The notes: a model not told the origin generated them from the letters alone. A DNA stretch of 64,000 bases from Azolla caroliniana (GCA_043228905.1 JBHGNT010000009.1:7254001-7318000); one strand, 5' to 3'. Numbered from the stretch's first letter, positions 28,242 through 58,245 are shown. Program-made: numbers and translations.

Positions 28242-29900
28242 GGGCTTGGTTTATTTCGTGAAGGGACTTCTTCAGATGGCATACCACCGAGGTGTTCTTT
28301 TCGGACTCAAATCCGGGGGGTTGTACAATGTACATCTGTTCCTCAAGTTCTCCTTGCAGGAACGCATTCTTTACATCCATATGATGTAAATGCCACCCCT
28401 TTACTGCGGCCACCACAAGCAAGACACAAACGGTTGTCATCTTCGAGACAGGTGCAAAGGTCTCATCGTAGTCGGTGCCGTGTTGTTGTGTGTATCTCTT
28501 CGCCCCTAACCGAGCCTTGTAGTGGTTGACAGAGCCGTCAGTGTTGTACTTGACCTTGTACACCCACCTGCATCCAATCAACTTTACACCCTTCGGGGCG
28601 TCAACTAGGTCCGAGGTTTCATTTTCCGCTAATGCATGCATCTCTTCCTCCATTGCGGCACGCCAAGTTGCGTCCTTCGCCACTTCTACATAGCTCTCCA
28701 GCTCATGCACTTCCGTCACTCGCGTTGTGTACACGTAATATTGTGCCATGTACTCATTGTATCTGAATCGCACCACGGGGTTCTTTTGGTGGGTGGATCA
28801 GCGTAATTGCTCATTAGCCGATTTTGAGGCCCCCTTGACCGACGCGGACTTCGTTTCCGAAGGTCCACCTTCGTTCTTCTCTGAGTCGGATTTTCTTCAA
28901 TCCAACTCGTCTTTATCAATGTCGTTGTCGCGGTAATCCGCGGGTATGTGTCGACATGGGCGGGACCACAGAGATCTCGGACGAGGAAAAGATGGGTGTC
29001 GAGAAGCCGATATCTCTCCGGTTCCGGCTGTACTGGTTGTGGCGCAAATTGGAACGATTCTGGATGCGTACTGGCGGCTACCGAACACGAGAGAGGGAGA
29101 GGAGAGATACCACGTTGTCGTAGTGTAGGTTGCACACTATGTGGAAATTATATTTTTGTCCCTCCGGATAGAGAATGGAGTGCTTGGTGAGAACCGGAAG
29201 AAAACGGCATACCGGCAAGGAAGAAAACGGCATACCGGCAAGGAAGAGCCGGATAAAGAGACATAAATGTAAAATAAAGGAAATACTCACTATTGCGCAG
29301 GGCGTGATTCGAACTCTGCACCTCCACGTTGACAAACCCCAACCTTACCATTACATTAACTTATCTTAAGTGTTTTAAATATAGATTTAATACGTATAAG
29401 ACCTTTATTTATGCATACCTTTATTAAAAGGTAAATCGTGTATTTTTTTAATATATGAAAAAGAAAAAACACGAGACACTAAAAATAACTCATGCACATC
29501 TAGCGTGCATGAGCCCTATACTTAGGAAATAAAAAAAAAGCATCACATGCACATTTAGTGTGCATGAACATATTAGAAAAAGCATGTAGCTATGCTTAGT
29601 CTCTCCCATCACTATATAAGGACGGGGAGCACATTGTAGTTGTTGTTGATTATTTGGATTAAGTATTAATCAATACAAAAATTATTCGTGGGATTCACGA
29701 TTTATACATCTACTTCTCTCTTAACACCCTAAGTACCAATTAATATAGTATACTCGTGTGATTCACGAGTTTCTTATCTTTCTCTTTGCTATTTACTCAT
29801 TATTAATCTCTATCTCACGAACTTCTTTCTCCTAGTCCAAGACCTCTGTGGTTCCCACCCGACTCACGCAACGATCCGGAGCCGAAAGGCACGACACAGT

Positions 29901-29918
29901 TGGTGAACCCGACGTGAA
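29901..29918 (+). promoter_or_regulatory. Primer-binding site complementary to tRNA-Trp 3' end
   Basis: tggtgaacccgacgtgaa is the reverse complement of TTCACGTCGGGTTCA-CCA, the 3' end of plant cytosolic tRNA-Trp as I recall it; 4 nt after the LTR. Confidence 0.88.
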
Positions 29919-29934
29919 GACGGGTGGCAAGGAG

Positions 29935-31317
29935 ATGGAGGCTCAACAAGCTAACAATATGATGGCGATGTTCGAACGGATGCTTCAAGAACAACGCACG
30001 ATGTCGGAGATTTCGGCATCAGTAGAGCGGCTCGTGCAACGCAACGGGCAATTTAATGGTAAGGATGTGTCGCGATATTTGCAGGACTACAAGGCAGAGA
30101 TGCTCCGGTGCCGGGCTTCGGAAGGACTGCAAGTGACATCCTTTAACCGGGTGGCGACCGACGGGCTTCAAGGGAGTATCCACGGGTTGCAACAACAAAA
30201 TCCGACGTGGGTAGCATTCGAAGAGGCGTTAAAGACCACGTTTGCCATCGAGGACTCCTCCAAGGCAACGCGGAGGGGATTCGAGGATTGGGTGGAAACG
30301 TCAGGTAAGGGGCTGAAGGTCCTCGAAGTGTTTTCGACATTCGAAAGTCGGTTCGGGAGGTTGTCCGCGAGAGATCAAACTATTCTTGCACCGGACAAAG
30401 TCATCATGTTTTTGCGAGCTGTGGACGTCCGGGACCGGAAAGATCTCGGAGTGCTTCTTGAGGACACGACCACCGAAAGCGGCCTCACCGAAACATGGGA
30501 AAGCGTGCGGGATATCGTCGCGCGGTACACGAAGAGGGGGCAATGGCTTGCCAACAAAGAAAAGAGGGTTTCGGAACCGATTCCGAAACCGAGAACGGGA
30601 CTGGAAGACCATCAACCGAGGGCTCGGGAGATTACGGCCGAAAAGGGAGTCGACGCGTCTACGGTGGAGCAGCTGCTGAAGGAGATGGAGAATCTAAAGA
30701 TCGCGATGGTGAAGAAGTCAGATGACCGCCCCACAAGCTCCAAATATACGGATCGACGGTGCATATGGTGCGATAGCGCCGAACACGATCGGAGGGATTG
30801 CGACGACCATAAGGAGGCGCTACGACGGGATCTCATCTACTACGAGGGAAACCGGATTCATTCGATGGACTCTCGGAAGCCACTCCGACCGAACTTCCGG
30901 AAAGGCGGCATGAAGAAGGTGCTCGAGGAGGAGTTAGCGGCAAGAAGCAACTATGCGACAACCGCGGGAATATGTGTCGGGGAGTCAACGGGAGCAAAGG
31001 CGTCTTTCTGGCCGGAGGTGCTAGGAAACACCGAGAAAACCGACTCCAACGATATCCGAAACACCGCGGAAGGCGTCCGGGAAGCTACGGGATGGGAGTG
31101 CCTTGTCGACAAGAATAGCATATACGCCCTGTGTCAAATACATGAGGTGTATGTGGACGAGAAACGACGGCGCACGGAGGATGCGGCCGGACCATCGAAG
31201 ATACCGGAAAGCTGGAACTCCGGAGGTAAGGGAAAAGAAAAGGCGACTCCGGCATTCAAGCTCGCCTCGGACATAGAACAACAAACCTACTTGAAAAGAG
31301 TGTTCGAGGAAAGAATC
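29935..31317 (+). CDS. G gag, part 1 of the gag-protease ORF (cut by element I)
   Basis: Open frame from MEAQQ with zinc knuckle CIWCDSAEHDRRDC; joins 36890 in frame (EERI|LDSR) after removing I and one GAATC. Confidence 0.9.
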
Positions 31318-31789
31318 TGTTGAGAATCGATGCTCCGATTAACCTTCACCGCTCGGCCACAACCGAGTAGTCGCGAATCAATGCAGCAGAAAATAGGAAA
31401 CACCGAGAAAGACACGATAACACAGGGATTAACGTGGAAAACCCTATACGGGAAAAACCACGGGAGTGCAAGACTCCAAACCAAAACTATGCACAGAGAA
31501 ATATACAATGGCGAGCTGCAAGGCAACGACCTTGAGCTCGCTGTCCTCGCCACAGGCGGCGGTATTACACAGAGGCAACGACCTCTTCGTCTTTCTCTCT
31601 CTCTCTCTCGGCTGCTCTCTTCACTCTCTCTAAGTGAGAACAGAAAATGAGCAACAACATCATCTGTTTGCCCTAAGTCATATTTATACACATATGACTT
31701 TCGAGCTATTTACAAATATAGCCTCAAGGGCCCTTGGCAAACATATTCACAAATATGTCCCCGCATCCGGATCTCTCTCCGGGTACATT

Positions 31790-31995
31790 CGTCATCCGGC
31801 TCCGTAACCGGGGTCTTCATCATCCGGCTCCGTAGCCGGGGTCTTCATCATCCGGCTCCGTAACCGGGGTCTTCATCATCCGGCTCCGTAGCCGGGTCTT
31901 CGTCATCCGGCTCCGTAACCGGGGTCTTCATCATCCGGCTCCGTAGCCGGGGTCTTCATCATCCGGCTCCGTAGCCGGGTCTTCGTCATCCGGAC
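31790..31995. repeat. 27-28-bp tandem repeat in the 3' LTR of I (7 units)
   Basis: Unit c(a/g)tcatccggctccgta(a/g)ccgg(g)gtctt. Confidence 0.93.
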
Positions 31996-32035
31996 ATCCC
32001 ATCCGGAGGGACCGAAATCCCAACAAACTCCCCCT

Positions 32036-35000
32036 TCACTTCGGCATGGGATGTCTCTCCAATCCGATTCTCTTCCGGCATGCTTCCAGCTTGTCGGGTG
32101 TGAGCACTTTGGTCAGCATATCTGAGCCGTTTTCGTCCGTGTGGATCTTCGTCAGCACGAACTCCTGGTCTTCTATCCTTTCCCAGATCCAGTGATATCT
32201 TCGCTGGATGTGCTTCGTCCGGGAGTGATAGGCCGCGTTCTTCGCAAGGTGGATGGCACTCTGACTGTCGCAGTAGAGTCGGTACTCCTCCTGTCGGATA
32301 CCGAGCTCTCTAATGAAGTCCTTCATCCATATTATTTCCTTGCCGGCTTCAACAGCCGCCATGTACTCCGCCTCCGTGGTTGACAATGCAACCGTCTTCT
32401 GCAGCCTCGACTGCCAGGAAACAGCTCCCCCTGCATACGTCATCACATACCCTGATGTGGACCGGCTGGTATCTGCATCAGCCGACATATCCGAATCGGT
32501 GAAGCCGTCGAGTTCGGGCTTACCGGATCCGAATCGGAGGCACACGTTTGCCGTGCCCTTCAGGTATCGGAGTATCCACTTGGCCGCGTTCCAATGCTCT
32601 TTGCCGGGATTGCTCATGTACCGGCTCACCACTCCGACTGCATATCCTATGTCCGGTCGGGTACACACCATTGCGTACATCAAGCTCCCGACGGCAGAGG
32701 CATATGGTACTTTCATCATGTCCTCCTTCTCAGCCTTTGTCTTGGGGCTTTGCTTGCTGGACAGCTTGCAGTTTGTCGGGAGTGTTGACCCGACTGGTCT
32801 TGCTTCCGACATGTTGAACCGGTGAAGCACCTTTGTCACGTACTTCTCCTGTGACAGCCACAACTGCTTCTTCTTCCGGTCTCGGATGATGTGCATCCCT
32901 AGTATTTGCCTCGCCGGACCCAGGTCCTTCATTGAGAAGGTTCGGTGAAGTGCTTTCTTCAGCATCCGTATCTTGACCTGGTCCCGTCCGACGATCAACA
33001 TGTCGTCCACGTACAGGAGGAGTATTAGAAAGTCTCCTCCTTCGAACTTCTTCACAAACACGCAGTGGTCGGACTGCGTTTTGCGGTACCCTTCGTCGGT
33101 CATGAAAGAGTCGAACTTCCGGTACCATTGCGGGGGAGCCTGCTTCAGTCCGTAAAGGCTCTTCTTCAACCGGCATACCAGGTGCTCCTTCCCTTTCTTC
33201 TCGAATCCTTCCAGTTGCTGCATGTAGATCTCTTCTTCGAGGTCACCGTGAAGGAATGCCGTCTTCACGTCCATCTGTTCTACCTCGAGGTCCATGCTCG
33301 CCGCTATGCTCAGCACCGTTCGGATGGAGGTCATCTTCACTACCGGGGCAAATATCTCGTCGAAGTCGACGCCCTTCTTCTGCTGAAACCCCTTTACCAC
33401 GATCCTGGCTTTGTATCTCGGGGGGTTCCCGGCATCTCCCGGTTTCAGCTTGAACACCCACTTGTTTCGTAGTGCCCGCTTTCCTTTCGGCAACACCACA
33501 AGTTCATATGTGTGGTTCTCATGCAGGGAATCCATCTCGTCCTGCATGGCACTCAACCACCTGCGGCTCTGGGTGTCATGCTTTGCTTCTTCAAAGCTCT
33601 CCGGCTCCCCCTCGTCGGTTAGCAGCACGTGCTCTGGTTCCGGAAATCTCCGGGGAGGATATCTCCGTTCCGGAGCTTCGGTAACCGGTTCTTCCGATTC
33701 TTCTTCATCCGAATCCATTTCGGGATCAGGGCCGGTTCCGGTATCATTTTCATCTTCTTCGGCCGGTTCTGTTTCTTCACCGTCTTCGGCCGGATCCTCG
33801 AGTGCTAACCGGTCCCTTGCCGGTCGGGACTGCTCCTCGTAGAGTTGATTCTCACTGGTCGACTTGGAGCTCTTCATCTTCTTCTCCGACTCCCAGTCGG
33901 CGAGTGTCTTGTCCTCCATGAAGATGATATCACGACTCCTGAATATCTTCTTGTCGACCGGGTCCCATACTCGGTAGCCGAACTCGTCGTCGCCGTAACC
34001 GAGGAATATGCATGGCCGGGTCTTTGGATCTAGCTTTCCTCTCCGGTCCTTTGCCACATGCACATATGCGAGACACCCGAACACCTTCAGATGCCGGTAG
34101 GACACTTCCTTACCGGTCCACACTTTTTGCGGCGTGTCTCCGTCCAAAGGTACTGAGGGTGATCTGTTTATCACGTATGTCGCCGTCGACATTGCCTCAG
34201 CCCAGAACCCCTTGGGTAATTTCGCATGCGCCAGCATACTCCGGACCCTCTCCATTATGGTCCGGTTCATCCTCTCGGCTAGCCCGTTCAGTTCCGGCGT
34301 CTTCGGCACAGTAAACTCGAGTCGGATTCCCTTCGAGCGACAGTACTCCTGGAACTGCCCCCGGTATTCCCCTCCGTTATCCGCTCGTATCGCTTTCAGC
34401 TTCTTGCCGGATTCCCTTTCCACTCTCGCGTGGAGTTCTTTGAAGACGCCCAACACTTGGTCCTTTGTCTTCAACGGCGCCGTCCACAGCTTTCGGCTGT
34501 GGTCATCAATGAATGTCACGAAGTATTGGGCTCCGCCATGTGACTTCGTTTCTACTTGACACACGTCAGTGTGCACCAGCTCCAATGGTGCACTACGTCT
34601 CGTCGGTGGCCTTGAGTGGAAGGAGGTCCGGTTTTGCTTACCGGCCAGGCAGTCGGTGCACTTCTCCAGGTGCACATGCTTCACTGGAATAAGGTTGTCT
34701 TCTGCAAGCCTCTTCATCCCCTTCTCACTCATGTGGCACAGTCTCTTGGGCCACAGCTCACCGGCAGTGTCGGCTGCCACGTTCAGCTCCTCCGGACATA
34801 GCCGGGAATTCATCAGGTACAGTGTGTTGAACTTCCGGGCCCGAGCCACTATCAAGCTCCCCTTGCTGAACTTCATTTCGCCGCTCCGGATGCTACCTGT
34901 GTAGCCTTCATCGTCTAGCCTCCCGGCCGAAATCAGATTCAGTCGAACCTCCGGAACGTGTCGGACATCCTTCAGCAGCATTTTGCATCCGGTTGATGTC

Positions 35001-36091
35001 ATCAGCCACACGTCTCCTATGCCGGCAATCCGGCACGTACCTTCATTTCCCATCCGGACACAGCCATGCTCACCGGCTGTGTAGGATGAGAAGTATCTTC
35101 TCTCCGGGGTCAGGTGGAACGATGCTCCGGAATCGACCACCCAGGTCGTCTCATCGCCGGCAACGTTTAGTTCACCTTCTTCGGTGATGAGCATGATTTC
35201 TTCCTCACTTGCCGCGAGTGCCGTTGTTCCTTTCCGGTCCTGCCCTCGCCGATCCGAACCTCTTCGGTCCGTGGCTCCCCGGTATGCACCGTTTCTCTCC
35301 GGTGACTTCTTCGAATCGGTGTCGACGGCTCCGTTGTCTTTTCGGTAATGCCGACAATTCTTTCGGAAGTGCCCCGGCTTCCCACAGTGGAAGCATGTGG
35401 GCCTTCCTCTTGACTGCGACCGGGTCCCCGACTTCTCCCGTCTTTGCGGACTCCGGTTCCATTGTCTTCCCCGTTCCGATTCGGTAAGCAGCGCCTTCGA
35501 GTCGGAGGCCGGTTCTTTATCTCTCCGACGCGCTTCTTCATTCAAAATACTTGTCTTTACCGTTTGTAGAGACAAGTTATCTTCGGTGCAGGAGGTGCTG
35601 AGGGTCACCACCAAGTTCTCCCAGCTTTCCGGCAATGTACACATCAGAATGATGGCTTGCATTGCATCCTCCAACGGGAACTTGATCGCCGCAAGCTGGT
35701 TCACGAATCCCATGAACGTGCTTACGTGTTCGACCATGCTCTCGCCGTCCCGGTACTTAAGATTCACTATCTTCCTCATCAGGGAGGTCCGGTTCAGCGC
35801 ATTCTTCCTCTCATACAGTCCGGACAGCTTCCGCCACATCTCATAGGCGTTCGTATCGTTCGCCACATGTTGCAGGACACTTACATCGACATATTGCCGG
35901 ATCGTCACTACGGCTTTCCGGTTCAGAAGCTTCCATTCCGACTCAAGTACTCCCTTCGGTATTTCCGACCTGTCAATCGGTTCGTACAGGTCCCGAACAA
36001 TTAGAAGATCTTCCATCTTGATCTTCCAGTCGGCGTAGTTCTGAGCATTCAGCACCATCATGCCCGGAGGCCCACTACCGCCGCCTTCCAT
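32036..36091 (-). CDS. Gag-Pol polyprotein of element I (1351 aa)
   Basis: One open frame nearly identical to E, with the same Copia motifs and a few non-conservative changes (LWPKRL, QAPPQW). Confidence 0.96.
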   Translation of the reverse strand: MEGGGSGPPGMMVLNAQNYADWKIKMEDLLIVRDLYEPIDRSEIPKGVLESEWKLLNRKAVVTIRQYVDVSVLQHVANDTNAYEMWRKLSGLYERKNALNRTSLMRKIVNLKYRDGESMVEHVSTFMGFVNQLAAIKFPLEDAMQAIILMCTLPESWENLVVTLSTSCTEDNLSLQTVKTSILNEEARRRDKEPASDSKALLTESERGRQWNRSPQRREKSGTRSQSRGRPTCFHCGKPGHFRKNCRHYRKDNGAVDTDSKKSPERNGAYRGATDRRGSDRRGQDRKGTTALAASEEEIMLITEEGELNVAGDETTWVVDSGASFHLTPERRYFSSYTAGEHGCVRMGNEGTCRIAGIGDVWLMTSTGCKMLLKDVRHVPEVRLNLISAGRLDDEGYTGSIRSGEMKFSKGSLIVARARKFNTLYLMNSRLCPEELNVAADTAGELWPKRLCHMSEKGMKRLAEDNLIPVKHVHLEKCTDCLAGKQNRTSFHSRPPTRRSAPLELVHTDVCQVETKSHGGAQYFVTFIDDHSRKLWTAPLKTKDQVLGVFKELHARVERESGKKLKAIRADNGGEYRGQFQEYCRSKGIRLEFTVPKTPELNGLAERMNRTIMERVRSMLAHAKLPKGFWAEAMSTATYVINRSPSVPLDGDTPQKVWTGKEVSYRHLKVFGCLAYVHVAKDRRGKLDPKTRPCIFLGYGDDEFGYRVWDPVDKKIFRSRDIIFMEDKTLADWESEKKMKSSKSTSENQLYEEQSRPARDRLALEDPAEDGEETEPAEEDENDTGTGPDPEMDSDEEESEEPVTEAPERRYPPRRFPEPEHVLLTDEGEPESFEEAKHDTQSRRWLSAMQDEMDSLHENHTYELVVLPKGKRALRNKWVFKLKPGDAGNPPRYKARIVVKGFQQKKGVDFDEIFAPVVKMTSIRTVLSIAASMDLEVEQMDVKTAFLHGDLEEEIYMQQLEGFEKKGKEHLVCRLKKSLYGLKQAPPQWYRKFDSFMTDEGYRKTQSDHCVFVKKFEGGDFLILLLYVDDMLIVGRDQVKIRMLKKALHRTFSMKDLGPARQILGMHIIRDRKKKQLWLSQEKYVTKVLHRFNMSEARPVGSTLPTNCKLSSKQSPKTKAEKEDMMKVPYASAVGSLMYAMVCTRPDIGYAVGVVSRYMSNPGKEHWNAAKWILRYLKGTANVCLRFGSGKPELDGFTDSDMSADADTSRSTSGYVMTYAGGAVSWQSRLQKTVALSTTEAEYMAAVEAGKEIIWMKDFIRELGIRQEEYRLYCDSQSAIHLAKNAAYHSRTKHIQRRYHWIWERIEDQEFVLTKIHTDENGSDMLTKVLTPDKLEACRKRIGLERHPMPK

Positions 36092-36594
36092 TTTCTGTGT
36101 TAACGTCGCTCTGATACCACTTGTTGAGAATCGATGCTCCGATTAACCTTCACCGCTCGGCCACAACCGAGTAGTCGCGAATCAATGCAGCAGAAAATAG
36201 GAAACACCGAGAAAGACACGATAACACAGGGATTAACGTGGAAAACCCTATACGGGAAAAACCACGGGAGTGCAAGACTCCAAACCAAAACTATGCACAG
36301 AGAAATATACAATGGCGAGCTGCAAGGCAACGACCTTGAGCTCGCTGTCCTCGCCACAGGCGGCGGTATTACACAGAGGCAACGACCTCTTCGTCTTTCT
36401 CTCTCTCTCTCTCGGCTGCTCTCTTCACTCTCTCTAAGTGAGAACAGAAAATGAGCAACAACATCATCTGTTTGCCCTAAGTCATATTTATACACATATG
36501 ACTTTCGAGCTATTTACAAATATAACCTCAAGGGCCCTTGGCAAACATATTCACAAATATGTCCCCGCATCCGGATCTCTCTCCGGGTACATTC

Positions 36595-36855
36595 GTCATC
36601 CGGCTCCGTAACCGGGGTCTTCATCATCCGGCTCCGTAGCCGGGGTCTTCATCATCCGGCTCCGTAACCGGGGTCTTCATCATCCGGCTCCGTAGCCGGG
36701 TCTTCGTCATCCGGCTCCGTAGCCGGGGTCTTCATCATCCGGCTCCGTAGCCGGGGTCTTCATCATCCGGCTCCGTAGCCGGGTCTTCGTCATCCGGCTC
36801 CGTAACCGGGGTCTTCATCATCCGGCTCCGTAGCCGGGTCTTCGTCATCCGGACA
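36595..36855. repeat. 27-28-bp tandem repeat in the 5' LTR of I (9 units)
   Basis: Same unit as 31790-31995; two extra copies account for the 55-bp LTR length difference. Confidence 0.93.
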
Positions 36856-36889
36856 TCCCATCCGGAGGGACCGAAATCCCAACAGAATC

Positions 36890-37546
36890 TTGGATAGCCG
36901 GGTAGATTTTTCGTTGCGGGAACTACTCGGAATAGCGAAGAAGGAGTTTCACGATCTTCTCGTGGATCTCGTGAAAAGGAAGAGACAAAGTACGGAGGAA
37001 AATGCTCCAAGGGTGAATGCAAATACCGTTTCAATGAACGACACCGAAGTGGAAGGCGAAATTCCGAACTCCCACTATACAAGGCCACACTGGGCACGTG
37101 CGACTACGGAGACTCCGGTCCGAATCGGCAACATCAAAGAACCCGTGCTAGCATTGATTGATCACGGATCGGAGATCAACTTGATGTCCAAGGAGTTCTA
37201 CCGAAAGGGGAAGTGGCCTATAAACACCAACCATGGATGGAAGATTCGGGCAGCCACGAAAACGACAGAAGACCTATTTGCGGCTTGTCCGGATGTGACG
37301 GTAAAGATCGGGGATGTCGAAATTGACCAAAATTTCTTTGTGCAGGATGAGGTTTCACATTCTGTCATCCTCGGCCAACCCTTTATCACGGCTTCACGGA
37401 TGGAGACGAAGGTGCTCGATAGTGGTGCGGCTTTTGCGCAAATTCGGAGCCAAAACGGAGGGAAATCCGTCCAATTCCTAACGGTGCCGGCAAATCACGA
37501 AAGGAACAAGAGGGAACTCTTGTCCCAAGTGAGAATGGATTTTTAA
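36890..37546 (+). CDS. G gag-protease, part 2 (aspartic protease)
   Basis: LALIDHGSEINLM and VILGQPF protease motifs; ends MDF-stop. Confidence 0.9.
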   Translation: MDSRVDFSLRELLGIAKKEFHDLLVDLVKRKRQSTEENAPRVNANTVSMNDTEVEGEIPNSHYTRPHWARATTETPVRIGNIKEPVLALIDHGSEINLMSKEFYRKGKWPINTNHGWKIRAATKTTEDLFAACPDVTVKIGDVEIDQNFFVQDEVSHSVILGQPFITASRMETKVLDSGAAFAQIRSQNGGKSVQFLTVPANHERNKRELLSQVRMDF

Positions 37547-37600
37547 AGCGGACTGTTGCGGAGTGGGGAAGTGATAGTCCGAGAAGCCCTGATACCCCAC
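37537..37600 (+). promoter_or_regulatory. Candidate -1 ribosomal frameshift signal (slippery heptamer + pseudoknot)
   Basis: G GAT TTT at 37537-37543 just before the stop. Stem 37549-37559 / 37571-37581; loop gtgggg 37563-37568 pairs with ccccac 37595-37600. The -1 frame is open into pol. Confidence 0.8.
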
Positions 37601-41148: not shown

Positions 41149-43024
41149 GTTGCACACTATGTGGAAATTATATTTTTGTCCCTCCGGATAGAGAATGGAG
41201 TGCTTGGTGAGAACCGGAAGAAAACGGCATACCGGCAAGGAGGAAAACGGCATACCGGCAAGGAAGAGCCGGATAAAGAGACATAAATGTAAAATAAAGG
41301 AAATACTCACTATTGCGCAGGGCGTGATTCGAACTCTGCACCTCCACGTTGACAAACCCCAACCTTACCATTACATTAACTTATCTTAAGTGTTTTAAAT
41401 ATAGATTTAATACGTATAAGACCTTTATTTATGCATACCTTTATTAAAAGGTAAATTGTGTATTTTTTTAATATATGAAAAAGAAAAAACACGAGACACT
41501 AAAAATAACTCATGCACATCTAGCGTGCATGAGCCCTATACTTAGGAAATAAAAAAAAAGCATCACATGCACATTTAGTGTGCATGAACATATTAGAAAA
41601 AGCATGTAGCTATGCTTAGTCTCTCCCATCACTATATAAGGACGGGGAGCACATTGTAGTTGTTGTTGATTATTTGGATTAAGTATTAATCAATACAAAA
41701 ATTATTCGTGGGATTCACGATTTATACATCTACTTCTCTCTTAACACCCTAAGTACCAATTAATATAGTATACTCGTGTGATTCACGAGTTTCTTATCTT
41801 TCTCTTTGCTATTTACTCATTATTAATCTCTATCTCACGAACTTCTTTCTCCTAGTCCAAGACCTCTGTGGTTCCCACCCGACTCATGCAACGATCCGGA
41901 GCCGAAAGGCACGACAACGTGCACCACACCGACTCAAGACACGCCTCTTATGTACACGAAACAAAGGGAAAGAAATGCACCCGACACCAACAGAGACACA
42001 AATATGCACAACCTGATATATATATATATTACACAAGCAAGATACACCTCCGGCTTCAAGCCGGACCAAGGTAGCTTAGGTTACAACAGTCGTCTACTGC
42101 CAAGCCACCGAGCGGGGTCTTGCACAAGAGACCGAATAGAAGCAAACCCCACTGAACGTACAGCTCTTCACTAGACTAAACCTTAAACAGACACGAAGGA
42201 GAAGAAGAAATCGAAGAACCCTAACCGAAAACAAGAAAGTAAGAAGGAGAAGAAGCTACCGAAATGAAACCCTAAACGAAATGGGTGGAAGAAGACCAAA
42301 GTAGAAACCCTATGAAAATAAGAATGAGATGAAGAGGAAGAACACTACCAAACCCTAGACCTAAGTGGTATACCCTCCTAACTCAAAATGGGCAACCCCT
42401 CTATAAGGGACCCTCCCTTCCTTTGATGGAACAAGGAGAGGGATGCGTAACAATGTGGGATAAATCCTGTATTACATGGGATTCTCTATCCCAACTTAAT
42501 TCCTATTCAACGCCATAAAGGCACCCCTATTATTCACACGTTTTTACAAGGGTAAGTGCAGATGATGCACTCCACCGATTCTTCCGATATTCCCCGGTTT
42601 CTCACCATGGCCCGGAATCTTCACGACATCCGCCCCCACCAAACCGCACGTCCACCGGTACGTGCCAAGTTCAGAGAAGGGTGAGAGATTCCGGCCGGTG
42701 AGGAACCGGTCTTCCGTAATCCACATTCCGGTTGTGCATTGGCCTCGCCGGTCCCAACCGTCAGCTCCGGTTCCTTCTCCGCGTTTGCCTCTCTGTAGAC
42801 TTGTTCGACCCGTTGGTAGGTCATTCGTCGCGATCCTATAGTGTGTGTGCTTCCCCGTTGGCCCTTCTTTCGACCGCATGCACGCTTCTCATCCCTTCGA
42901 ATACACGGTGTCCTCTGTCCGAGAAGCACCTGTGATGGTCCGCTTGGCCTCCTTCGACGTTCGCGTCGTCCTGATTCTCATTCCGCATTGATCTCCACCA
43001 CCTTGGTCCCCTCGCCGCCACCTA

Positions 43025-45545
43025 CCTTCTCCTTGGTCTTACGTTGCCACGGCGGCCGAACTGCTAAGGTCTACGAAACAAGTGTGGAGGATCCCTCTTC
43101 GGCCTTCTACGCGAGATCACCTGGACCGACAACTCATCTTTGCGCCTGTATTCCAGCTCTAGCACCTCCGTGTACCGTGCATCCCCTTCTCGTACTCGGC
43201 TCCGCCCGTGCCACACTCCGGTTACTTCCCATGCACGTGTCATCGGCCCTTGCCCGGCTAGATTGTGCATTGCCGCTTCTCCGCATACCGGTGTCCTCCG
43301 CGTCCAAGGAACACCCCATAGTAGCCCGCTTGGCCACTTTCGTCTTGCGCTGTTGCCACCCGTTTGGAGCCTTCCGCTTTGCGTCGTCCCCTCGCCCCCT
43401 CAAGATTGTTACCTCGGGTGCGGCTTGCCACGCCAGTCGTTGCCACTCCGACTGGACGACCGAGATCTCCGAAGCAGGTGTGGAGGATCATTCTCCGGCC
43501 CTTGTTCCTGTTTCTGGTTTCCAATCCATGTAGTCTGTTACGCGCCCGTGCTCTCGTTCCCAGCACCTCTGTGTGCTATCTTCCGCCTTCCTTGTTCGAC
43601 ACCGCATGTGCCGAACACCATCCCGTTCTCATGCTTCGCTTTGGCCCTTGATGGCCACTTGCACGTCTTCCGATCCACTTTCAGGTGCGCCCTTTCCATC
43701 TTAGTGCACCGCTCCTTGACCGGGTGTCCCCGACAACTTACTAGAAGATCACCATCGCTGCGTTCCGGCCCGCATTGCCTCCTTCGTTTGTGTGACGCCT
43801 CGGCTATTCGATGCTTTTGTTGTTGCCACCTTTGTCCCCTTGCCGCCACCTTCCATTACCCTCAGTCTCATGTTGCCACGTCGGCCGAACTCCGGAGTCT
43901 CCGGGCAGGTGTGAAGGATCCTTCTTGGGCCTCCAATTTGTTGGGTCACCGACTCGTGTACCAAGCACGTCTGATCTTTGTCTTGCCGACTCTGTCGGTC
44001 GGGTCCGTATACGGTTCGTGGCCACGTCGCCAGCTTGATACCTCTTTCCGCTGTTTCAGCCCTTGCTTTGTCGGATCCCATTCATCTACCGCCACTATCC
44101 TTCTCTCTAGGTCTCATGCCAGCTCTTGGGCCGACTGCCGGAGTCTCCGGATCGGTGTGAGGATCGTCGTAGGATCGCCCATCCGCACTTCTACGTCGTT
44201 TCTCGGGATCTCGTTCACCTGCCGCCACCGTCCATCTCTCTAGGTTTCATGCCGGCTCCGCTGCCGACTGTTGGAGTCTCCAGATCAGTAAGAGGATAGC
44301 CCATCCGTTGTCTTTGCCCTCATCCCCTCGCCACCACCGTCAGTCTCTTGGTCTTACGTTGGCTCCGTTGCCGACTGCCGAAGTCTCTAGCCCGGTGTGA
44401 AGGATCCTCCTTGGGCATGCGTCTTTCCGACCCCTTCCTTCTCCACATGTCGAGAGGCTGACTCGCTCCAGACCCTCTCCCGTGGTACTGATGTACCGTG
44501 TTCCAGCCTCTCCGTAGGCCTGCTCCTTCCTCCCTTCCGGATCGGTTATCCAGAAGTCCGCTCCGCCCGGTTCTTGTCCGGGTTCGTCCGCCACTCCGCA
44601 TTGTCGGGTCTCGTTCTCCTGCCACCACCATGAGTATCTTGGTCTTACATCAGATCCGATGCGGACCGCCGAAGTCTCTAGCCCGGTGTGAGGTGACCCA
44701 TAGGACTGGTCTTCGTTCTTCGCTTCCGGATCGTTTGTATTGGCCGTGACCTCCACGTCCTCGCCGCCAGTTTCCATCTCTTAGGTCTTCCATTGGTTCC
44801 CTGACGCAACCGCCTAAGTCTCGCGACGAGTGTGGAGGACCCATACTTCAGGCCGCCGCCTCTTTCTTTCTTCCCCCCGCCATCGATCCTCTTCTCGCGC
44901 TTCCCTACCATCTCCCTTCTCTCACGTTGCCACACTGGTCGAACTGTCGAGATCTCCGGTCAAGATGTGGGGATACCGATTCCGTAATGACTCCCGACGA
45001 CTTGTCCCAGGCCACCGACCCTTTTAGTGGTGTCGGTGGAAAGCATATGTTCTATGATCGATCAAGCCCCGCCTAGGCTTGATTCTCCAATGTCCGGAGT
45101 TTTGGCTCTGACACTGATCCCGCCGGACTCGTTCTGTACTCTCGATCATCTTCTTCCTGATTCCCGACCTTCTCCCGGTCGGTCTTTCTCCCCATGTAAA
45201 AGAGGGCGGCTCGTCCTGCACCCTCTCCCATATCGGCACCTTCATACCGAACCTTGCCGCTATCGCATGATCCACATCCGGATCGTGCTCCACCTGAATC
45301 GGAATGCCGACCAATCCGATTCCAAGTCGGGTCGACTTCTGATTCCGCTCCCTTCGGTGCCGCCTCTCATTTCCCCTTTCTTCTCTGCCGTAGCTCCGTC
45401 CTCGACCTCCTCACAGGCCGTTTCCCATCCATCTTTGTTGGCATCGTGCCAGGACTCCTTGTTGGCGCCTTCCATCTCTCCGGTCTTATGCCGGCACACG
45501 GGCTCGACTGCCGGAGTCTCCGGAATCCGTGTGGAGTGCTCTTCT
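43025..45545. repeat. Dispersed degenerate ~65-70-bp repeat in the F internal region (~10 copies)
   Basis: Consensus roughly tctcttggtcttacgtt...gccgactgccgaagtctc.....cggtgtg(g/a)aggat near 43030, 43440, 43860, 44105, 44235, 44345, 44635, 44775, 44920, 45475; one copy in H near 49015. Confidence 0.75.
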
Positions 45546-46467
45546 CCGCTCCCAACCTCCACCTTGGCCGGTCTTTCTCCGCAAGTTGAGAGGGTGTTTC
45601 GCTCCACACCCTCTCCCATGGTACCATCGTACCATTCCTCGGCCTCTGCTTGGGCCATGTCTGCCTTGTCCGGAAGGCCGACTTGCTTTGAGTCTTCGGA
45701 ATCCGCCCGCGTGCCAGATCTCTCTTCTTCATTGACCAATGCCTTCAAAGCCTCAAATGCTTCCCAGACCAAGGCTTCGACGTCAAGCTTCGCTGATCCT
45801 TCTTGTTGCGTGCCTGCTTCCTGCCATGATGGCACGCCGTCGCGCGTTATCTTCCTTTTTCCCTTCGCGGACCGGTCCTCGTCCAACCTTCGGCATACTC
45901 GTTCGACTTCCAACCAATCCAGGGTAAGGCCATTCGCTCCGCCATCATCTTCGAGCTCAATCCCGATGGCCTCCCGTTCCACTCGTTCGATAGACTAATG
46001 AAAAACAGGACTTTGTCCGCCCCCACCAGACTTTTCTCCTGTTCCGGGAGCCGAGCAAGTTGCCACTCGAACTCTCGGAACGTCTTCGTTGCACCTCGAT
46101 GGGTCTTCGCCGATGCAACCCTCTGGTCGAAGTTGCGTCGACCCCAACTCTTCCGCCATCCTCCATATGCTAGCAGGAGCACCTCTTCGAAGGCCTCCCA
46201 TGAACTATGAGCTTCTCGGAGCTCCTTCACTTCCGTGTGCATACAGACGGCGACAACCCGACAGAAGAACTCCAACCTCAACGCCTCGTCTACGTCTCAC
46301 ACCTCCATTTCTGTGTTGTAGGCTTCCAAGTAGAATGGGACTTTGTCCCCGTTGAAACGGCCTACTCTTTCGACCACTCACTCAATAGCTTGCTGCACCA
46401 CTTCCCGTCTCAACTCCAACACCACTTTAGCCACCATCTCCGCGAAGTCATCGTCTTCCGACTCCAT
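45260..46467 (-). pseudogene. F gag remnant with acidic extension
   Basis: MESEDDDFAEMVAKV...VERVGRFNGDKVPFYLEAYN...SWEAFEEVL...GADKVLFF is homologous to G and H gag; contains stops and a frameshift. Confidence 0.8.
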
Positions 46468-47380
46468 CCTCCCTTGTCTCCCTTTCACGTTTGGTTCACC
46501 AAAGATGTTGCAGTAATCTACGGGTCTGTGTCGAAGGCGGGACCACAAGGGTCTCTGACGAGGAAAGGATGGGTGTCCAGAAACCGACCTCTCTTCGGTT
46601 CCGACTTGCACTGGTTGTGGCGCAAACAAGAGCGATTTCGGACGCATACCGGCGACTACTGAACACGAGAGAGGGAGACGGAGGGATACCACGCGCGCAA
46701 CACCGACTCAACACACGCCTCTTATGTACACGAAACAAAGGGAAAGAAATGCACCCGACACCAACAGAGACACAAATATGCACAACCTGATATATATATA
46801 TATTACACAAGCAAGATACACCTCCGGCTTCAAGCCGGACCAAGGTAGCTTAGGTTACAACAGTCGTCTACTGCCAAGCCACCGAGCGGGGTCTTGCACA
46901 AGAGACCGAATAGAAGCAAACCCCATTGAACGTACAACTCTTCACTAGACTAAACCCTAAACAGACATGAAGGAGAAGAAGAAATCAAAGAACCCTAACT
47001 GAAAACAAGAAAGTAAGAAGGAGAAGAAGCTACCGAAATGAAGCCCTAAACGAAATGGGTGGAAGAAGACCAAAGTAGAAACCCTAAGAAAATAAGAATG
47101 AGATGAAGAGGAAGAACACTACCAAACCCTAGACCTAAGTGGTATACCCTCCTAACTCAAAATGGGCAACCCCTCTACAAGGGACCCTCCCTTTTATAGA
47201 ACAAGGAGAGGGATGTGTAACAATGTGGGATAAATCCTGTATTACATGGCATTCTCTGTCCCAACTTAACTCCCCTATTATTCACACGTTTTTACAAGGG
47301 TAACTACAGATGATGCACTCCGCTGATTCTTCCGATATTCCCCGGTTTCTCACCCTGTGCCGGAATCTTCACGACACCGT

Positions 47381-50300
47381 TGTAGCGTTATTCCGCGAGT
47401 ACGTGTAGGATCCCAGGCGGGACCGCGGGGGTCTTGGACTGGGGAGTAGAGGAGAAAGAATAAGATATGATATGGAAGCTTAGCTGAAGAGGAGAAGAGG
47501 AAAGAATAAGATTATCACATAGAAGGAGAGATCCGCGGAGGCAAGATACTAAACGAGTTATATTAAAACAAACGAATGATTACAACAATGGTGGCCGCAT
47601 GGGCCGCAGCAAACGACTATGAGAAAACCCTCACCGAAGATGAATAAGGAAACCCTAACCCTAAAACGGTAAGAACTCTAGACTAAGTGGTATACCTCCC
47701 ATACGCAAAATAGGCAACCCCTTTATAAGTGACCCCTCCCTTCCTTTTATAGCCCAAGGAGGGAGGGACCTTACAATGTGGGACAAAATTTCCCCTCTTA
47801 TTTCTATACACCATTTCCTAGTATACATGTGCACATGTTGCACACCACCGACTTGCCCCATTCCACCCCGGTTTCACACCGTAGCCGGAAATCTTCACGA
47901 CATCCACCCCCACCAAACCGCACGTCCACCGGTAGGTGCCAAGAAAGGAAAAGGGTGAGAGATTTCGGCGACGGTGAATAATCAGGTTCTTCGCCTTCCC
48001 GGCACCCGACCGTCTTGCCGGTCCCTTGCCGGCGCCGATCCGTCTTGCCAGCTCCTTACCGGCCCCGACCCGCCGGCTCCATCTGATCCACCACGACCAC
48101 CATGTGTCCCCAAACCGTCGGCTCCATCCGATCCGCCATATTCGACGTTCGCGCCTCCGTTCCCGATCGGTCGTCTCGAACGTCGTTGCTGACTTGGTCA
48201 CCCTGACTTTGTCCGCCGCGTATGTTATCTGATTGGGCCCCCGGTCACTCCGATCGCACGCCGGATGCCGCTCCTCGCGTATCGCGTTGTTCCACCTCCG
48301 GCTCAACCTTCTCCTCGCCCCGAACACCTCGTACAAACTCCCTTTGTTCCGCGCTCGCCTCCCTTAGGCTCTTTCCGTGTGTCGTTGTTGTCCTCCGAAT
48401 ACGCGCTCGTTCTTTGACCCTTAGATGACCCCATTCCGCACTCCTTGCTTCTTGTTTGCTCGTCGTGCTCTCTCGTCGTAGAGCGTACCGTCATCCCGAC
48501 CTCCATGTTGGTGTCCCTCGAGGCTCTCGTTACCGCCTCGCCTCGACTTGCGCCCTCTTGGCCCGCTTGACCTTACATGCCCTCCAGGAAGCTGCCGCAT
48601 TTTCTCTTCCCAGTGTGTACCCCGTTGTTCTCCGCGCACCATCCTTCGCTCTCACCACCCATCCGCCGATCCCGACATCTCTCCGTTTCGTCTCTCACCA
48701 CCCTTTTGCCTCTCAAAGGCTCGACCGGACCGCTATCACCGGTCACTTGTTGTGGCTCTTCCGAATACATGCTCGTTTCTTGGCCCTCGAGTGGCCGTAG
48801 TGCATGCTCCGTTTTACGCCGTAGTGCATGCTTCGTATTACGCGCCTCATCCGCCGTAGACCCGACCTCTGTGTCAGTCTCTTCGTCCGTCGTTGCCGTA
48901 GCCCCTTCCGACTCCGGCTTGCCATCTTGGCCCCGCTCATCCGTCTTCCCGCATCGGATATCCGCTCCGGTCCCCGATTCTGCATTGGCCTCCAACTCCT
49001 CGCCGCCACCCGCCGTCTCTTTGGTCTTACGTTGATCCGCAGCCGCCAAAGTCTCAAGAATGGGTGTGGAGGGTCCCCCTTGGTCTCGGCTCTCACCGAT
49101 CCATACTTGTCGTGCCCGGTAAGCCTCCTTCTCGCTTTTACCGGCTCCCATCATAACCGTAACCGTTCCAGTCTTGTCGGCTTCTTTCGGTTTGGGCCCG
49201 GTTGACTGGCCCCCGCTTCACTCTTCTTCCGCTTCGTCCGGACGTCGTTGTCTGCGGCTACCCCGCCTCCGATCGCGCAAGCCTCGATTACGTTGGAGCC
49301 TCTAAGAGCGGTGTGTGTAAGGTTGTTGCACCGTTACTTGTCTCCTCCCCACTCGATGTTTCGGGCCGCCATGTCCCGAATTCGTAGTTACCGGCCTCCA
49401 TGGCCATCCCTTCACCGCAAAGCAAGAGGGTCGCTTGCTCCCCACCCTCTCCCATGTCGCCATCGTACGCTCTCCCGGCCTCCATATAGGGCCCGTCTTC
49501 TACACTTAGGGAGGCTTCTTCCTCCGTATCCTCCGATCGCCTCCAACCCAACTCCATAATAAGCCCTCCTTCGGCTTTGATTTTCGCCTTCACAAACTCG
49601 CATGCCTCCCGTATTAGCGCTTCTAGGTCGAGCTCCTCCGAACCTTTTTGCGTCGAGCTCTCTTCCGGCGGTAGTGCGTAGTCACTCGCCGCTCTCTCTT
49701 CTCTGCTTGCAGGCCGTGTTGTGGCCTACCGCCTCGCATCATGTTGCCGGCACACCCATTCCACCTCGGACCACTCCTCGGTGAGACCATGTGCTCCATA
49801 ATCATCTTGAGGCTCAAATAGGACGCCCATCCTCCCCTCATGATGGACCGTCTTCAAAAATAGGAGGACTTTGTCCGCCCCCACCGATCTCCGTTCCCAC
49901 TCCGAGAGTTGAGAGAAACGACGCTTGAACTCTGGGAATACCTCCATCGCACTCCGATGACGCCTCGCCAACGCCACCCACCGATCAAACTCATGTCGAC
50001 CTCTTCCTTCCGGTTCCGCGTACCCGTACGCCTCCAATAGAGCTCCCTCAAAGGACTCCCCCGATTCGTGAGCTTCTCGGAGCTCCTTGACCTCTTCGTA
50101 CCTTGATACGGCCGCCACTCGACAAAAAAAATCTAGCCTTGTCGCTTCGTCCACACCCCGCTCTGTCATCTCGGCATTGTAAGCTCTCAAAAAATTTGGG
50201 ACCTCATTCCCATTGAACCGGCCGACTCGATCGACCGCCCTTTCGACGGCTTGTTGAGCCGCATCTCGCTTCGCCATCTTCTGTCCGGCTTCCATCAAGA

Positions 50301-50789
50301 TCTTTGCCATCATCTCCTCGAAGTCGAAGTCTTCTTCCATCTCCATGCTCCCTTGCCACCTCTTCACGTCGGGTTCACCAAATATGTCGCGTTATTCCGC
50401 GAGTACGTGTAGGATCCGAGGCGGGACCGCGGGGGTCTTGGACTAGGGAGTAGAGGAGAAAGAATAAGATATGATATGGAAGCTTAGCTAAGGAGGAGAA
50501 GACCCTCACCGAAGATGAATAAGGAAACCCTAAATGAAACCCTAACCCTAAAACGGTAAGAACTCTAGACTAAGTGGTATACCTCCCATACGCAAAATAG
50601 GCAACCCCTTCATAAGTGACCCCTCCCTTCCTTTTATAGCCCAAGGAGGGAGGGACCTTACAATGTGGGATAAAATTTCCCCTCTTATTTCTATACACCA
50701 TTTCCTAGTATACATGTGCACATGTTGCACACCACCGACTTGCCCCATTCCACCCCGGTTTCACACCGTAGCTGGAAATCTTCACGACA
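47381..50789 (-). mobile_element. Element H: 3.4-kb non-autonomous gag-only LTR element related to F
   Basis: LTRs 47381-47902 and 50385-50789 (the latter has a ~130-bp deletion). Perfect Trp PBS 50363-50380. 4-bp TSD CCGT at 47377-47380 and 50790-50793. No pol motifs. Confidence 0.92.
49726..50346 (-). CDS. H gag (capsid-like N-terminal part)
   Basis: AVERAVDRVGRFNGNEVPNFLRAYNAEM...GADKVLLFLKTV...GLTEEWSEV aligns by eye with G gag SVERLVQRNGQFNGKDVSRYLQDYKAEM...APDKVIMFLRAV...GLTETWESV. Confidence 0.8.
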   Translation of the reverse strand: MEMEEDFDFEEMMAKILMEAGQKMAKRDAAQQAVERAVDRVGRFNGNEVPNFLRAYNAEMTERGVDEATRLDFFCRVAAVSRYEEVKELREAHESGESFEGALLEAYGYAEPEGRGRHEFDRWVALARRHRSAMEVFPEFKRRFSQLSEWERRSVGADKVLLFLKTVHHEGRMGVLFEPQDDYGAHGLTEEWSEVEWVCRQHDARR

Positions 50790-57984: not shown

Positions 57985-58245
57985 CGTAATCGAGGCATAT
58001 ACCTCTACGCACACGAGACATCCAAAAATAAGGGTTAATCATAATACGCAATTGAGGTATTGACCTCTTACGCATACGAGACTAAACGCATATCATTTAC
58101 AACGAATCGAGGTATTGACCTCATACGCAAACGTAACATATGTTTGTGAACGTAATACGCAATTGAGGTATTAACCTCGTGCGCATACAACACTCATCAC
58201 ATATTCAATCTACGTCAAATGAGGTATTGACCTCGTGCACATATG
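57985..58245. repeat. Array of five palindromic cores (GAGGT-N4-ACCTC) at ~56-bp spacing in the J leader
   Basis: Cores at 57992 (variant), 58054, 58109, 58165, 58221. Confidence 0.85.

Follow-up and report, generated by a model that had tools for sequence, protein, structure and literature searches.

Nested arrangement of G, F and H

The window, by which we mean the whole 64,000-nucleotide stretch of Azolla caroliniana DNA that was analysed, contains a Gypsy retrotransposon, G, on the plus strand, lying inside the 3′ LTR of a second element, F, which adjoins a third, H; F and H are on the minus strand. The two LTRs of G (29116..29896 and 41136..41916, TGTCGT...CGACA) differ at 3 of 781 positions, and copies of its target-site duplication (TSD), ACGT, lie at 29112-29115 and 41917-41920. 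The primer-binding site (PBS, 29901..29918) follows after a 4-nt spacer, and a gag-protease ORF (29935..37546) encodes a capsid, a CCHC knuckle and a protease. This ORF is split by a young Copia element on the minus strand (31318..36884; TSD GAATC; LTRs 99.7% identical), without which G is 7,229 bp long; an intact relative of the ORF has 679 aa and 98% identity. The pol frame (37423..41148), −1 relative to gag-protease, encodes reverse transcriptase (RT), RNase H and integrase, and is overlapped by a pre-PPT hairpin (41098-41117) leading into the PPT (41098..41135 together). Pfam searches of G at E up to 0.1 detected these three pol domains and no chromodomain, additional RNase H or extra ORF. 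The nearest named relatives of the G proteins are from Riccia sorocarpa (55–74%) and Adiantum nelumboides (68%), and several families related to G exist.

F (5,642 bp) comprises a 5′ LTR of 871 bp (46506..47376), a PBS (46484..46501), a decayed long ORF (42629..46467) in which a capsid part is followed by decayed coding repeats, a pre-PPT hairpin and PPT (42629..42665) with a compensatory pair change relative to G, and a 3′ LTR whose U3 part (41921..42628) has been separated from its U5 part (28926..29111), the latter displaced through the insertion of G. The TSD copies of F are ACGG at 47377-47380, common to F and H, and ACGA at 28922-28925. H (3,409 bp) has a 5′ LTR of 405 bp (50385..50789; TSD ACGG at 50790-50793), which carries an internal deletion relative to the 522-bp 3′ LTR (47381..47902), and a PBS identical to that of G (50363..50380). 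Between them lie a capsid domain of 206 codons (49726..50346), a decayed acidic repeat linker (48141..49725), the remnant of a Trp/Arg-rich C-terminal motif (48060..48140, WRIGWSRRF...) and the pre-PPT hairpin sequence with the PPT (47903..47939). The first-pass annotation had described elements of about 5.6 and 3.4 kb without pol, and so they are: the best tblastn match to protease or pol in either has an E of 0.39.

Both window copies are pseudogenes. The capsid part of F is broken by two stops and one frameshift. In H, gag is interrupted by a stop after 206 codons, absent from most copies of the family in three DNA runs, and by a frame shift further on; its linker, homologous to the open linker of two intact relatives described below (L001 and L028), contains stops and frameshifts. 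The Trp motif was not found in F. The lesions in H exceed the number predicted from its 2% LTR divergence, and it would therefore seem that broken copies are mobile and that the satellite protein need not act in cis. An own gag and a long purine-rich repeat region had also been claimed for F and H. The gag is there, broken in both copies; the repeat region is only slightly purine-rich (A+G 63–64% versus 60% in G) and proves to be coding, as the decayed 3′ part of gag's own ORF. Inspection by eye had suggested a further gag-like remnant near 7930-8300, which tblastn did not confirm.

Shared signals and descent of the satellites

F and H, termed satellites here, bear the priming and integrase signatures of G's lineage, much as the first-pass annotation had proposed. 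All three LTR pairs begin TGTCGT and have the termini TGTCGT...CGACA in common. In each element a 4-nt spacer precedes TGGTGAACC..ACGTGA, with two mismatches in F; this PBS, kept across 16 aligned U5-PBS regions, is putatively of the tRNA-Trp type; no tRNA lies in the window. The TSDs are of 4 bp throughout (ACGG/ACGG in H; ACGG/ACGA, one mismatch, in F). The pre-PPT sequence, put at about 40 nt on first reading, resembles G over ∼45 nt more closely than 2000 of 2000 shuffles, for F as for H, and its hairpin shows pairing in 87 of 88 cells across 11 sequences, with one compensatory change. The interiors of the satellite LTRs had been thought unlike those of G. This holds for U3, which gave no match, but not for the last ∼80 nt of U5, which align at 65% over 95 columns (E 0.008); the U5 motif GACC-n5-GGTC/T is common to G and F/H.

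The 5′ LTR flanks of the satellites are NCGN in 6 of 10 cases and CpG-deamination products of NCGN in the remaining 4. In the available text of PMC6317226 an NCGN target site is reported for Phygy only, and G resembles the Phygy described there in its 4-bp NCGN TSD, its putatively Trp-type PBS, and its lack of a chromodomain or an extra ORF. At 7,229 bp it falls below the listed 7,656–9,968 bp, size being called insignificant for Phygy classification in the same text (PMC6317226). We call G Phygy-like, and its membership of the REXdb Phygy lineage is putative.

The satellite Gag is diverged but homologous to that of G, as claimed, with identities of 32% for H (E 1e-23) and 29% for F (E 6e-16), and of 31–33% per lobe between satellite and G capsids. 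In the capsid phylogeny the satellites form one group (34 of 89 rows, SH-aLRT 100), and in a 30-row tree from which chimeras were left out they form a clade supported at 100/100, whose stem measures 1.26 changes per site; the AU test rejects a grouping of H with G (p 1.7e-7). One clade on so long a stem argues that the satellites are not recent deletions of G, and the first reading of them as an independently evolving pol-less lineage is upheld by the tree. Nor is the capsid part neutral: omega (dN/dS) is 0.35 over seven sequences (2ΔlnL 88) and 0.51 over five sequences of families that retain only the C-terminal lobe (2ΔlnL 11), and these codon comparisons indicate that it is under purifying selection. 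F and H might still be taken for nothing more than recent derivatives of G-type elements, produced by deletion or substitution and with gag decaying neutrally, as the broken window copies would suggest. This reading, which we hold to be very improbable, already stands contradicted by the selection test as well as by the tree; U3 is moreover unrelated to G, and no pol was found in the 18 longer satellite loci.

The source of these loci is a single series of short-read assemblies, where contigs of high coverage represent collapsed repeats; the loci were chosen by their satellite-type gag rather than by LTR, with 60 of 64 parts scanned. Same-strand protease or pol was found in none of the 18 loci that continue for 1,300 nt or more beyond the capsid domain; among the 39 with at least 300 nt, the nucleocapsid region of G was found in none and the satellite tail in 29. 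L001, L028 and L031 are complete pol-less units with the order PBS-ORF-PPT. L001, with an internal region of 4.3 kb, is an intact relative present as near-identical copies in runs that contain the window DNA. Its pieces with 0–1 differences have depths of 1,647–2,451 in run X1 and 405–960 in X5; the corresponding depths for the window stretch, from the longest pieces among the matches listed, are 17–44 and 5–12. We infer that there are roughly tens of near-identical copies of L001. Summed depth, which is not a copy number, is several-fold higher in G pol bins than in F/H internal bins across three DNA runs. There is no L001 cover in run X16, and no RNA match to F or H appears among the matches listed. 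Contigs of run X15, a run presumed without certainty to be RNA, cover L001 in 30 of 30 bins but hardly or not at all the G pol bins; this is a weak hint of activity and not evidence of expression.

The satellite protein

The intact relatives have a single ORF, 1,419 codons at its longest, which spans the PBS to the PPT and encodes a predicted two-lobe capsid, an acidic repeat linker and a Trp/Arg-rich C-terminal motif; the earlier reading had overlooked both the motif, which is conserved, and the long linker with its open frame. The zinc knuckle (CCHC) is absent from all seven complete satellite ORFs, most of each being non-Gag linker, and no protease was found in the intact ORF. Pfam has no family for either gag, nor for the proteins P0001-3, P0006 and P0008, and both hits to P0005 are below cut-off. 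No relatives were found among viral contigs (41 pattern matches checked).

Residues 28–206 of H are predicted to form two helical lobes of the Arc/Ty3 type that superpose on retroelement CA (pLDDT 87). In structure comparison, ranks 1–28 are all retroelement capsids; the best matches, dArc1/Copia capsids, reach a Z of 10.2 over 159 residues, and the Drt2 structure a Z of 6.5. The overall rmsd of the best match is 8.8, that of single lobes 2.0–2.7. Foldseek returned nothing with E below 0.001 for this model, and a sequence-profile search of solved structures gave no matches. In the ESM Atlas, Retrotrans_gag clusters were matched at 0.91 by the N-terminal part, and the C-terminal 170 aa gave nothing usable. 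A model built earlier from an 8-row alignment had a poor C-lobe and was uninformative in Foldseek.

Several families have only one lobe. The N-lobe is deleted in L028, L031, L029 and L035-38, the C-lobe in P0178-80, and these deletions fall near the lobe boundary of the predicted capsid model. In addition, L046, P0023 and P0178-80 are recombinants in which G-type U5 and N-lobe sequences are joined to a satellite C-lobe or tail, an arrangement that fits co-packaging of G and satellite RNA. The claim that the satellites make their own capsid protein is not supported in that form, given the missing zinc knuckle, the several single-lobed subfamilies and the state of the window copies.

The linker, 200–1,100 aa long, behaves quite differently from the capsid. 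Its omega is 0.76–1.02, rising to 1.17 for four repeat units cut from blastn blocks, and its differences are spread evenly across codon positions (87/92/100). There are nonetheless no stops, where composition predicts 45; none of 500 neutral simulations at d 0.12 stays open, and all 16 internal repeat offsets are in frame. These counts show the linker amino acids to be evolving effectively neutrally, yet the openness of the frame is under selection. Indels of a multiple of three are not enriched between the L001 and L028 tails (8 of 27); the out-of-frame stretches are short and of low identity and may be alignment artefacts, so that we count them for neither side.

An open frame with neutral amino-acid change is also what would be seen if translation up to the 3′ LTR merely spared the RNA from decay, the protein tail being a by-product. 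The stop codons of L001 and L028, both 11 nt before the 3′ LTR, would suit such RNA protection; that of L031, in contrast, lies 176 nt before the LTR, directly after the Trp motif. The capsid omega is far below 1, and distant subfamilies preserve the motif in frame; synonymous changes occur among the five DNA copies compared. Long 3′ UTRs, moreover, do not predict nonsense-mediated decay in Physcomitrella, according to the available text of PMC6009662. We regard protection of the RNA as quite improbable.

The Trp motif stands in frame at the end of all seven complete ORFs (531–1,419 aa). For the C-terminal region of L001 versus L028, omega is 0.61–0.77 with intervals that include 1, so that the argument for the motif being selected comes from how it is conserved between distant subfamilies. 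GW/WG-containing motifs can serve as Argonaute hooks, and at least one GW dipeptide occurs in 6 of the 7 motifs. The protein could thus act on the host as a silencing suppressor binding Argonaute or, alternatively, on the helper as a dominant-negative capsid fragment limiting G, in the manner of Ty1 p22/p18. The motif of L031, however, has no GW, and the motif is richer in Trp and Arg than known Argonaute hooks. As to the dominant-negative form, having a gag-derived capsid C-lobe on its own is a feature shared with the Ty1 restriction factor p22/p18 and with Drt2, which the H model matches; p22/p18 belong to a Copia lineage of yeast and their inhibition is demonstrated (available text of PMC8458377), whereas in the satellites the lobe continues into a long tail within a mobile element, and any restriction role would be putative. 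These C-lobe forms sit in multi-copy helper-dependent elements, not in fixed host genes, and forms with only the N-lobe occur too. An action on helper or host is, in our estimate, unlikely.

Proposed packaging of the satellites and known parallels

The explanation we favour, as probable, is that F and H represent decayed members of an old lineage without pol, which is copied and inserted by G-type RT and integrase and whose protein serves as an adaptor bringing satellite RNA into helper particles. Very likely a G-type Pol, of G itself or of a sister family, mobilises the satellites in trans. How the protein would work is less certain: it is plausible, if rather short of probable, that the capsid lobe or lobes attach to the lattice of helper Gag and that RNA is held by the basic Trp-rich end, in place of the lost nucleocapsid, the linker needing only to stay in frame to join both ends in one chain. 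More speculative still is the full picture of a Gag turned capsid-docking adaptor, in which either lobe suffices and can, at need, be regained through recombination with the helper. Satellite RNA would then be loaded into helper particles by a new Trp/Arg-rich module that holds RNA, on a tether free to vary in length and sequence; we offer this as a possibility. Single-lobe subfamilies and the uptake of G's N-lobe make a capsid of the satellite's own doubtful and are better accommodated by an adaptor riding helper particles. Against the adaptor, the per-lobe identity between satellite and G capsids represents a large distance for co-assembly. A complex prediction for the G and H capsids, made without alignments, scored 0.18 against a mark of 0.34 and is evidence for neither side. 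A further observation counting against our preferred explanation is that the F subfamily, whose tail is decayed and without the Trp motif even in high-coverage contigs, is nevertheless abundant; one of its contigs, L008, has 8–17 stops per frame and another, L007, has 4 in about 500 codons.

Alternatively, the satellite Gag might itself build particles, alone or mixed, for satellite and helper alike, with the basic Trp-rich end in place of the zinc knuckle. Such a donor role has been proposed for RLG_Quinta (PMC11302176) and Sabrina/WHAM (PMC5738225) in the available texts; zinc fingers are missing from some retroelement NC-like proteins (PMC4974528), and the predicted two-lobe fold and constrained capsid described above are in keeping with it. 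Multi-copy single-lobe families, however, retain open ORFs and selection, such particles would have to make room for as many as about 1,000 acidic linker residues without a satellite protease, and G, if it frameshifts, would already yield Gag-PR in excess over Pol. We think a Gag donor rather unlikely.

The pairing of a helper with a gag-only partner is itself known, from wheat Cereba/Quinta, barley Sabrina/WHAM and TR-GAG. TR-GAG had been named as the parallel and is a valid one; the wheat and barley pairs are closer. RLG_Quinta and RLG_Cereba represent the non-autonomous and autonomous members of a centromeric chromovirus (CRM) pair of the Triticeae. As portrayed in the available text of PMC11302176, Quinta resembles the satellites as an old Gypsy lineage without RT and integrase that shares PBS, LTR termini and PPT with its helper, as F and H do with G. 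Its Gag homology to the helper is likewise clear only at the protein level, with recombination around gag, and its ORF joins GAG to a domain of unknown function, DUF1 (PMC11302176), comparable with the satellite tail by description. An intact gag-type ORF without RT and integrase is present in L001, L028 and L031, not in the window copies. Quinta/Cereba differ in being grass CRM elements with partly shared LTR interiors (PMC11302176); the lineage of F and H lives in a seed-free plant with a Phygy-like helper that is not a chromovirus, and its protein lacks a zinc knuckle, has a neutral linker and a Trp-rich end, and occurs in single-lobe variants.

In RLG_Sabrina/WHAM/Derami with BAGY2, DNA homology to the proposed helper is confined to the LTR 3′ end and PBS, Gag is homologous, and subfamilies stand at varied stages of gag decay, comparable to the open H-type and decayed F-type satellites; these elements are of the Athila lineage, with another tRNA primer, and no long open linker or terminal motif is described in the available text (PMC5738225). 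TR-GAG is similar in being an LTR element that has a single gag-type ORF and encodes no enzymes. It is described as an angiosperm element under 4 kb with a 5-bp TSD, the type element having a zinc finger and no internal repeats (available text of PMC4350172). H is below 4 kb, F and L001 are not; the satellites reach 5.6 kb, have 4-bp NCGN TSDs and a repeated linker, and their single ORF lacks the CCHC of a Gag precursor made up of capsid and nucleocapsid only.

We found in print neither a non-autonomous Phygy partner nor this satellite lineage and its protein architecture. The helper and gag-retaining partner system, familiar from angiosperms and among them the grasses, is thereby extended to a seed-free plant and a Phygy-like lineage, with a retained protein that has lost its nucleocapsid, can dispense with either capsid lobe, has gained a terminal motif and carries a linker selected for openness only. 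Packaging of non-autonomous elements is usually assumed to depend on RNA signals alone; the adaptor, if real, would show how such an element wins packaging in a helper particle and would supply a small cargo-loading module. Since the satellite ORFs have no Pfam match above cut-off, they have probably been missed or mislabelled in domain-based annotation.

A lineage without enzymes and its long open frame

The pol-less elements F and H, together with their relatives (the satellites), constitute one old lineage that lacks enzymes and has cis signals in common with the autonomous Gypsy element G (29116–41916, plus strand). The independent descent proposed in the first-pass annotation is borne out by Gag phylogeny: in a quick tree, the satellite capsids form one group of 34 of the 89 rows with an SH-aLRT of 100. 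In a careful tree without chimeras, they make up 15 of 30 rows, with support of 100/100 and a stem of 1.26 changes per site, and the clade adjoins the G family but lies outside it; the AU test rejects a forced grouping of H with G (p 1.7e-7).

A metagenome scan covering 60 of 64 parts of one assembly series yielded 60 loci with satellite-type gag, and a search for longer homologues gave eight proteins of 401–1,518 residues. Locus L001 comprises a PBS, a single 1,419-codon ORF whose stop lies 11 nt ahead of the LTR, and a PPT; L028 (895 codons) and L031 (635 codons) are similarly laid out. The 'long purine-rich repeat region' described earlier in F and H is indeed present, but these intact relatives identify it as the linker of one long protein, an acidic repeat region between the capsid part and a Trp/Arg-rich C-terminal end, and its purine content is only slightly above that of G (A+G 63–64% in F and H versus 60% in G). 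Of the 39 loci that extend 300 nt or more beyond the capsid domain, 29 carry the satellite tail and none the G nucleocapsid region; same-strand PR/pol is absent from all 18 loci with at least 1,300 nt. L024 has PR/pol upstream on the opposite strand, which we read as a separate element. Pieces of L001 with 0–1 differences reach depths of 1,647–2,451 and 405–960 in DNA runs X1 and X5, both of which contain window DNA; the longest listed pieces on the window stretch lie at 17–44 and 5–12, respectively, one high-depth gag piece per run being excluded. The depths suggest tens of young L001 copies, though this is not a measured copy number. Pieces from X15, a run only guessed to be RNA, span all 30 L001 bins (up to 1,123 nt, 98–100% identity), a weak hint of transcription.

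Both the capsid part and the open frame are under selection. Codon models put omega at 0.35 in the capsid part (7 sequences, 2dlnL 88) and at 0.51 in families retaining only the C-lobe (5 sequences, 2dlnL 11); pairwise counts are consistent with these values. In the linker, differences between L001 and L028 fall evenly on codon positions 1, 2 and 3 (87, 92 and 100), and omega is 0.76–1.02, or 1.17 over four repeat units. The linker contains no stops against 45 expected from composition and 17–36 in the five remaining frames, all 16 repeat offsets are in frame, and none of 500 neutral simulations run to half the divergence observed left it open; the high-coverage contigs are collapsed repeats, which biases towards open frames, though not frame-specific ones over the observed L001/L028 divergence. 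That the open frame serves to protect the RNA is a weakened alternative, because long 3′ UTRs did not predict NMD in Physcomitrella (PMC6009662).

The first 206 residues of the H protein were modelled with a pLDDT of 87, with predicted lobes at 28–110 and 115–206. Matches ranked 1–28 to this capsid model are all retroelement capsids (dArc1, Z 10.2); a Foldseek search with it gave no significant match. Seven complete ORFs were compared (P0002, P0006, P0008, P0010, P0179, P0180 and L031). Each has an acidic middle, a basic end and, last, a Trp-rich motif (W-x-I-G-W ... W-x-x-W-T/S-C/S-S-K-W; second half only in L031), and none has a CCHC knuckle. The N-lobe is absent from L028 and L035–38 at one breakpoint and from L029 and L031 at another, while P0178–80 have a G-type N-lobe without a C-lobe. 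Since such single-lobe families exist, a free-standing satellite capsid is disfavoured. L046 and P0023 join a G-type N-lobe to a satellite C-lobe; in separate lobe trees, the N-lobes of L046, P0023 and P0178–80 group with G and the L046 C-lobe with the satellites. The L046 chimera (L046:1014–2030) also has a G-type U5, and 3′ of it lies an unrelated antisense ORF of 1,137 codons (1937–5347, reverse coordinates).

G and the signals common to the satellites

G encodes gag-protease followed by RT-RNase H-integrase in the −1 frame, and its pol gave no chromodomain match. The gag-PR end (window 37536–37620) reads GAT TTT TAA, with a hairpin of −17.5 kcal/mol predicted just 3′ of it; a 'DF' ending occurs in 8 of 10 relatives, and P0160, an intact gag-PR relative, is 98% identical to G. 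A −1 frameshift after the protease, not before it, is likely, at what is presumably a frameshift signal. Among named relatives, those nearest to the G RT come from a liverwort, Riccia sorocarpa, and a fern, Adiantum nelumboides; judged by these, the host would probably be a seed-free plant, with a bryophyte as the likeliest kind. According to PMC6317226, Phygy elements combine a Trp PBS with 4-bp targets of the NCGN type. TatI elements likewise have a Trp PBS and 4 bp, but carry an extra RNase H that is not seen in G. We term G no more than Phygy-like from its TSD and PBS features.

Boundary reading upheld the claim that G, F and H have the same PBS, which we take to be of the tRNA-Trp type, the same spacer length and the same LTR ends, and their common pre-PPT sequence scored above 2000 of 2000 shuffles. 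The latter folds as a hairpin, with 87 of 88 cells paired across 11 sequences and one compensatory pair change; this was equalled in 2 of 500 shuffles, a score that kinship of the sequences can inflate. The LTR interiors had been thought not to resemble G, which is wrong for the last ~80 nt of U5. Targets were counted at 10 satellite 5′ LTR flanks in metagenome loci without a preceding PPT, with the L007 duplicate counted once and reversed LTR ends and one G-type LTR excluded. Six are NCGN and four NCAN/NTGN (chance 4e-6 and 4e-8), the latter being CpG deamination products of NCGN. Flanks of this type point to satellite insertion by a G-type integrase. Two solo satellite LTRs have 4-bp targets, ACGG/ACGG at L007:33–735 and ACGG/ACGA at L021:19–756.

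Candidate roles of the satellite protein

The satellite/helper system is real, and G-type Pol very probably copies and inserts the satellites in trans. The frame plausibly stays open because capsid lobe and Trp/Arg end would act in one chain; the protein may be an adaptor bridging helper lattice and satellite RNA, and its basic C-terminal end could reasonably stand in for the lost nucleocapsid. Counting against an adaptor are the abundance of the F subfamily despite a decayed tail without the Trp motif, the apparent movement of broken copies such as H, the identity of only 31–33% between satellite and G lobes, and selection on the last 170 codons that is not significant between two close families. 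Alternatively, the product might be a restriction or anti-silencing protein; an Argonaute-hook role is one that we presume conceivable.

A further rival is a Gag donor of the Quinta type. F and H operate like RLG_Quinta, which with RLG_Cereba (PMC11302176) is one published case of the helper/gag-retaining concept. Others are Sabrina/WHAM (PMC5738225), TR-GAG (PMC4350172) and a sugar-beet survey that lists 28 GAG/PROT-only families (PMC13570524). F and H depart from the TR-GAG definition in TSD, size and nucleocapsid. The literature searched, including an extract of PMC7466625, holds no description of such elements in mosses or Phygy; subscription papers, Repbase-type libraries or supplements may have one.

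Nested insertions and other elements in the window

Self-comparison and boundary reading revealed an old Copia with H and F inside it, both on the minus strand and arranged head to tail in the order ACGG-H-ACGG-F-ACGA. Both lie at one NCGN site, with a single 4-bp target copy common to the two between them (28922–28925, 47377–47380 and 50790–50793). G is inserted in the 3′ LTR of F (TSD ACGT) and a young Copia in the gag of G (TSD GAATC); minus nested inserts, G measures 7,229 bp, F 5,642 bp and H 3,409 bp. The LTRs differ at 3/781 positions in G and at 8/393 aligned positions, plus indels, in H; those of F differ at 24/681 in the U3 part versus 30/186 in the last part. Identity between the F LTRs (28926–29111, 41921–42628 and 46506–47376) is 96.5% in U3 but falls to 84% over the final ~190 nt, the drop beginning ~10 nt ahead of the G insertion. 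Two distinct RNAs in the same particle would account for the mismatch, as would gene conversion halted by G; LTR dating of F is unreliable.

The F capsid part has two stops and one frameshift, and the H ORF a stop after 206 codons with at least two frame shifts farther on. Another letter at the H stop accounts for 11,737 of 11,861 depth in X1, 2,054 of 2,380 in X3 and 7,362 of 7,521 in X5, so most of the family lacks this stop. Contigs of three DNA runs have an in-frame 222-nt gap in the H C-lobe (window 49752–49975), which makes them a further single-lobe variant present in the host.

A pair of young, related Copia copies (22842–28241 and 31318–36884) shows 90% identity; both have long open ORFs, and their LTRs carry a 28-nt tandem repeat in variable number. 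An older AT-rich Gypsy of another lineage (52000–58896, minus strand), nested in Copia, has no more than 25–26% identity to G pol. The window also contains a decayed LINE-like RT region, judged by eye (14300–16400, minus strand), and a tandem array of ~290–300-nt units (19584–20740).
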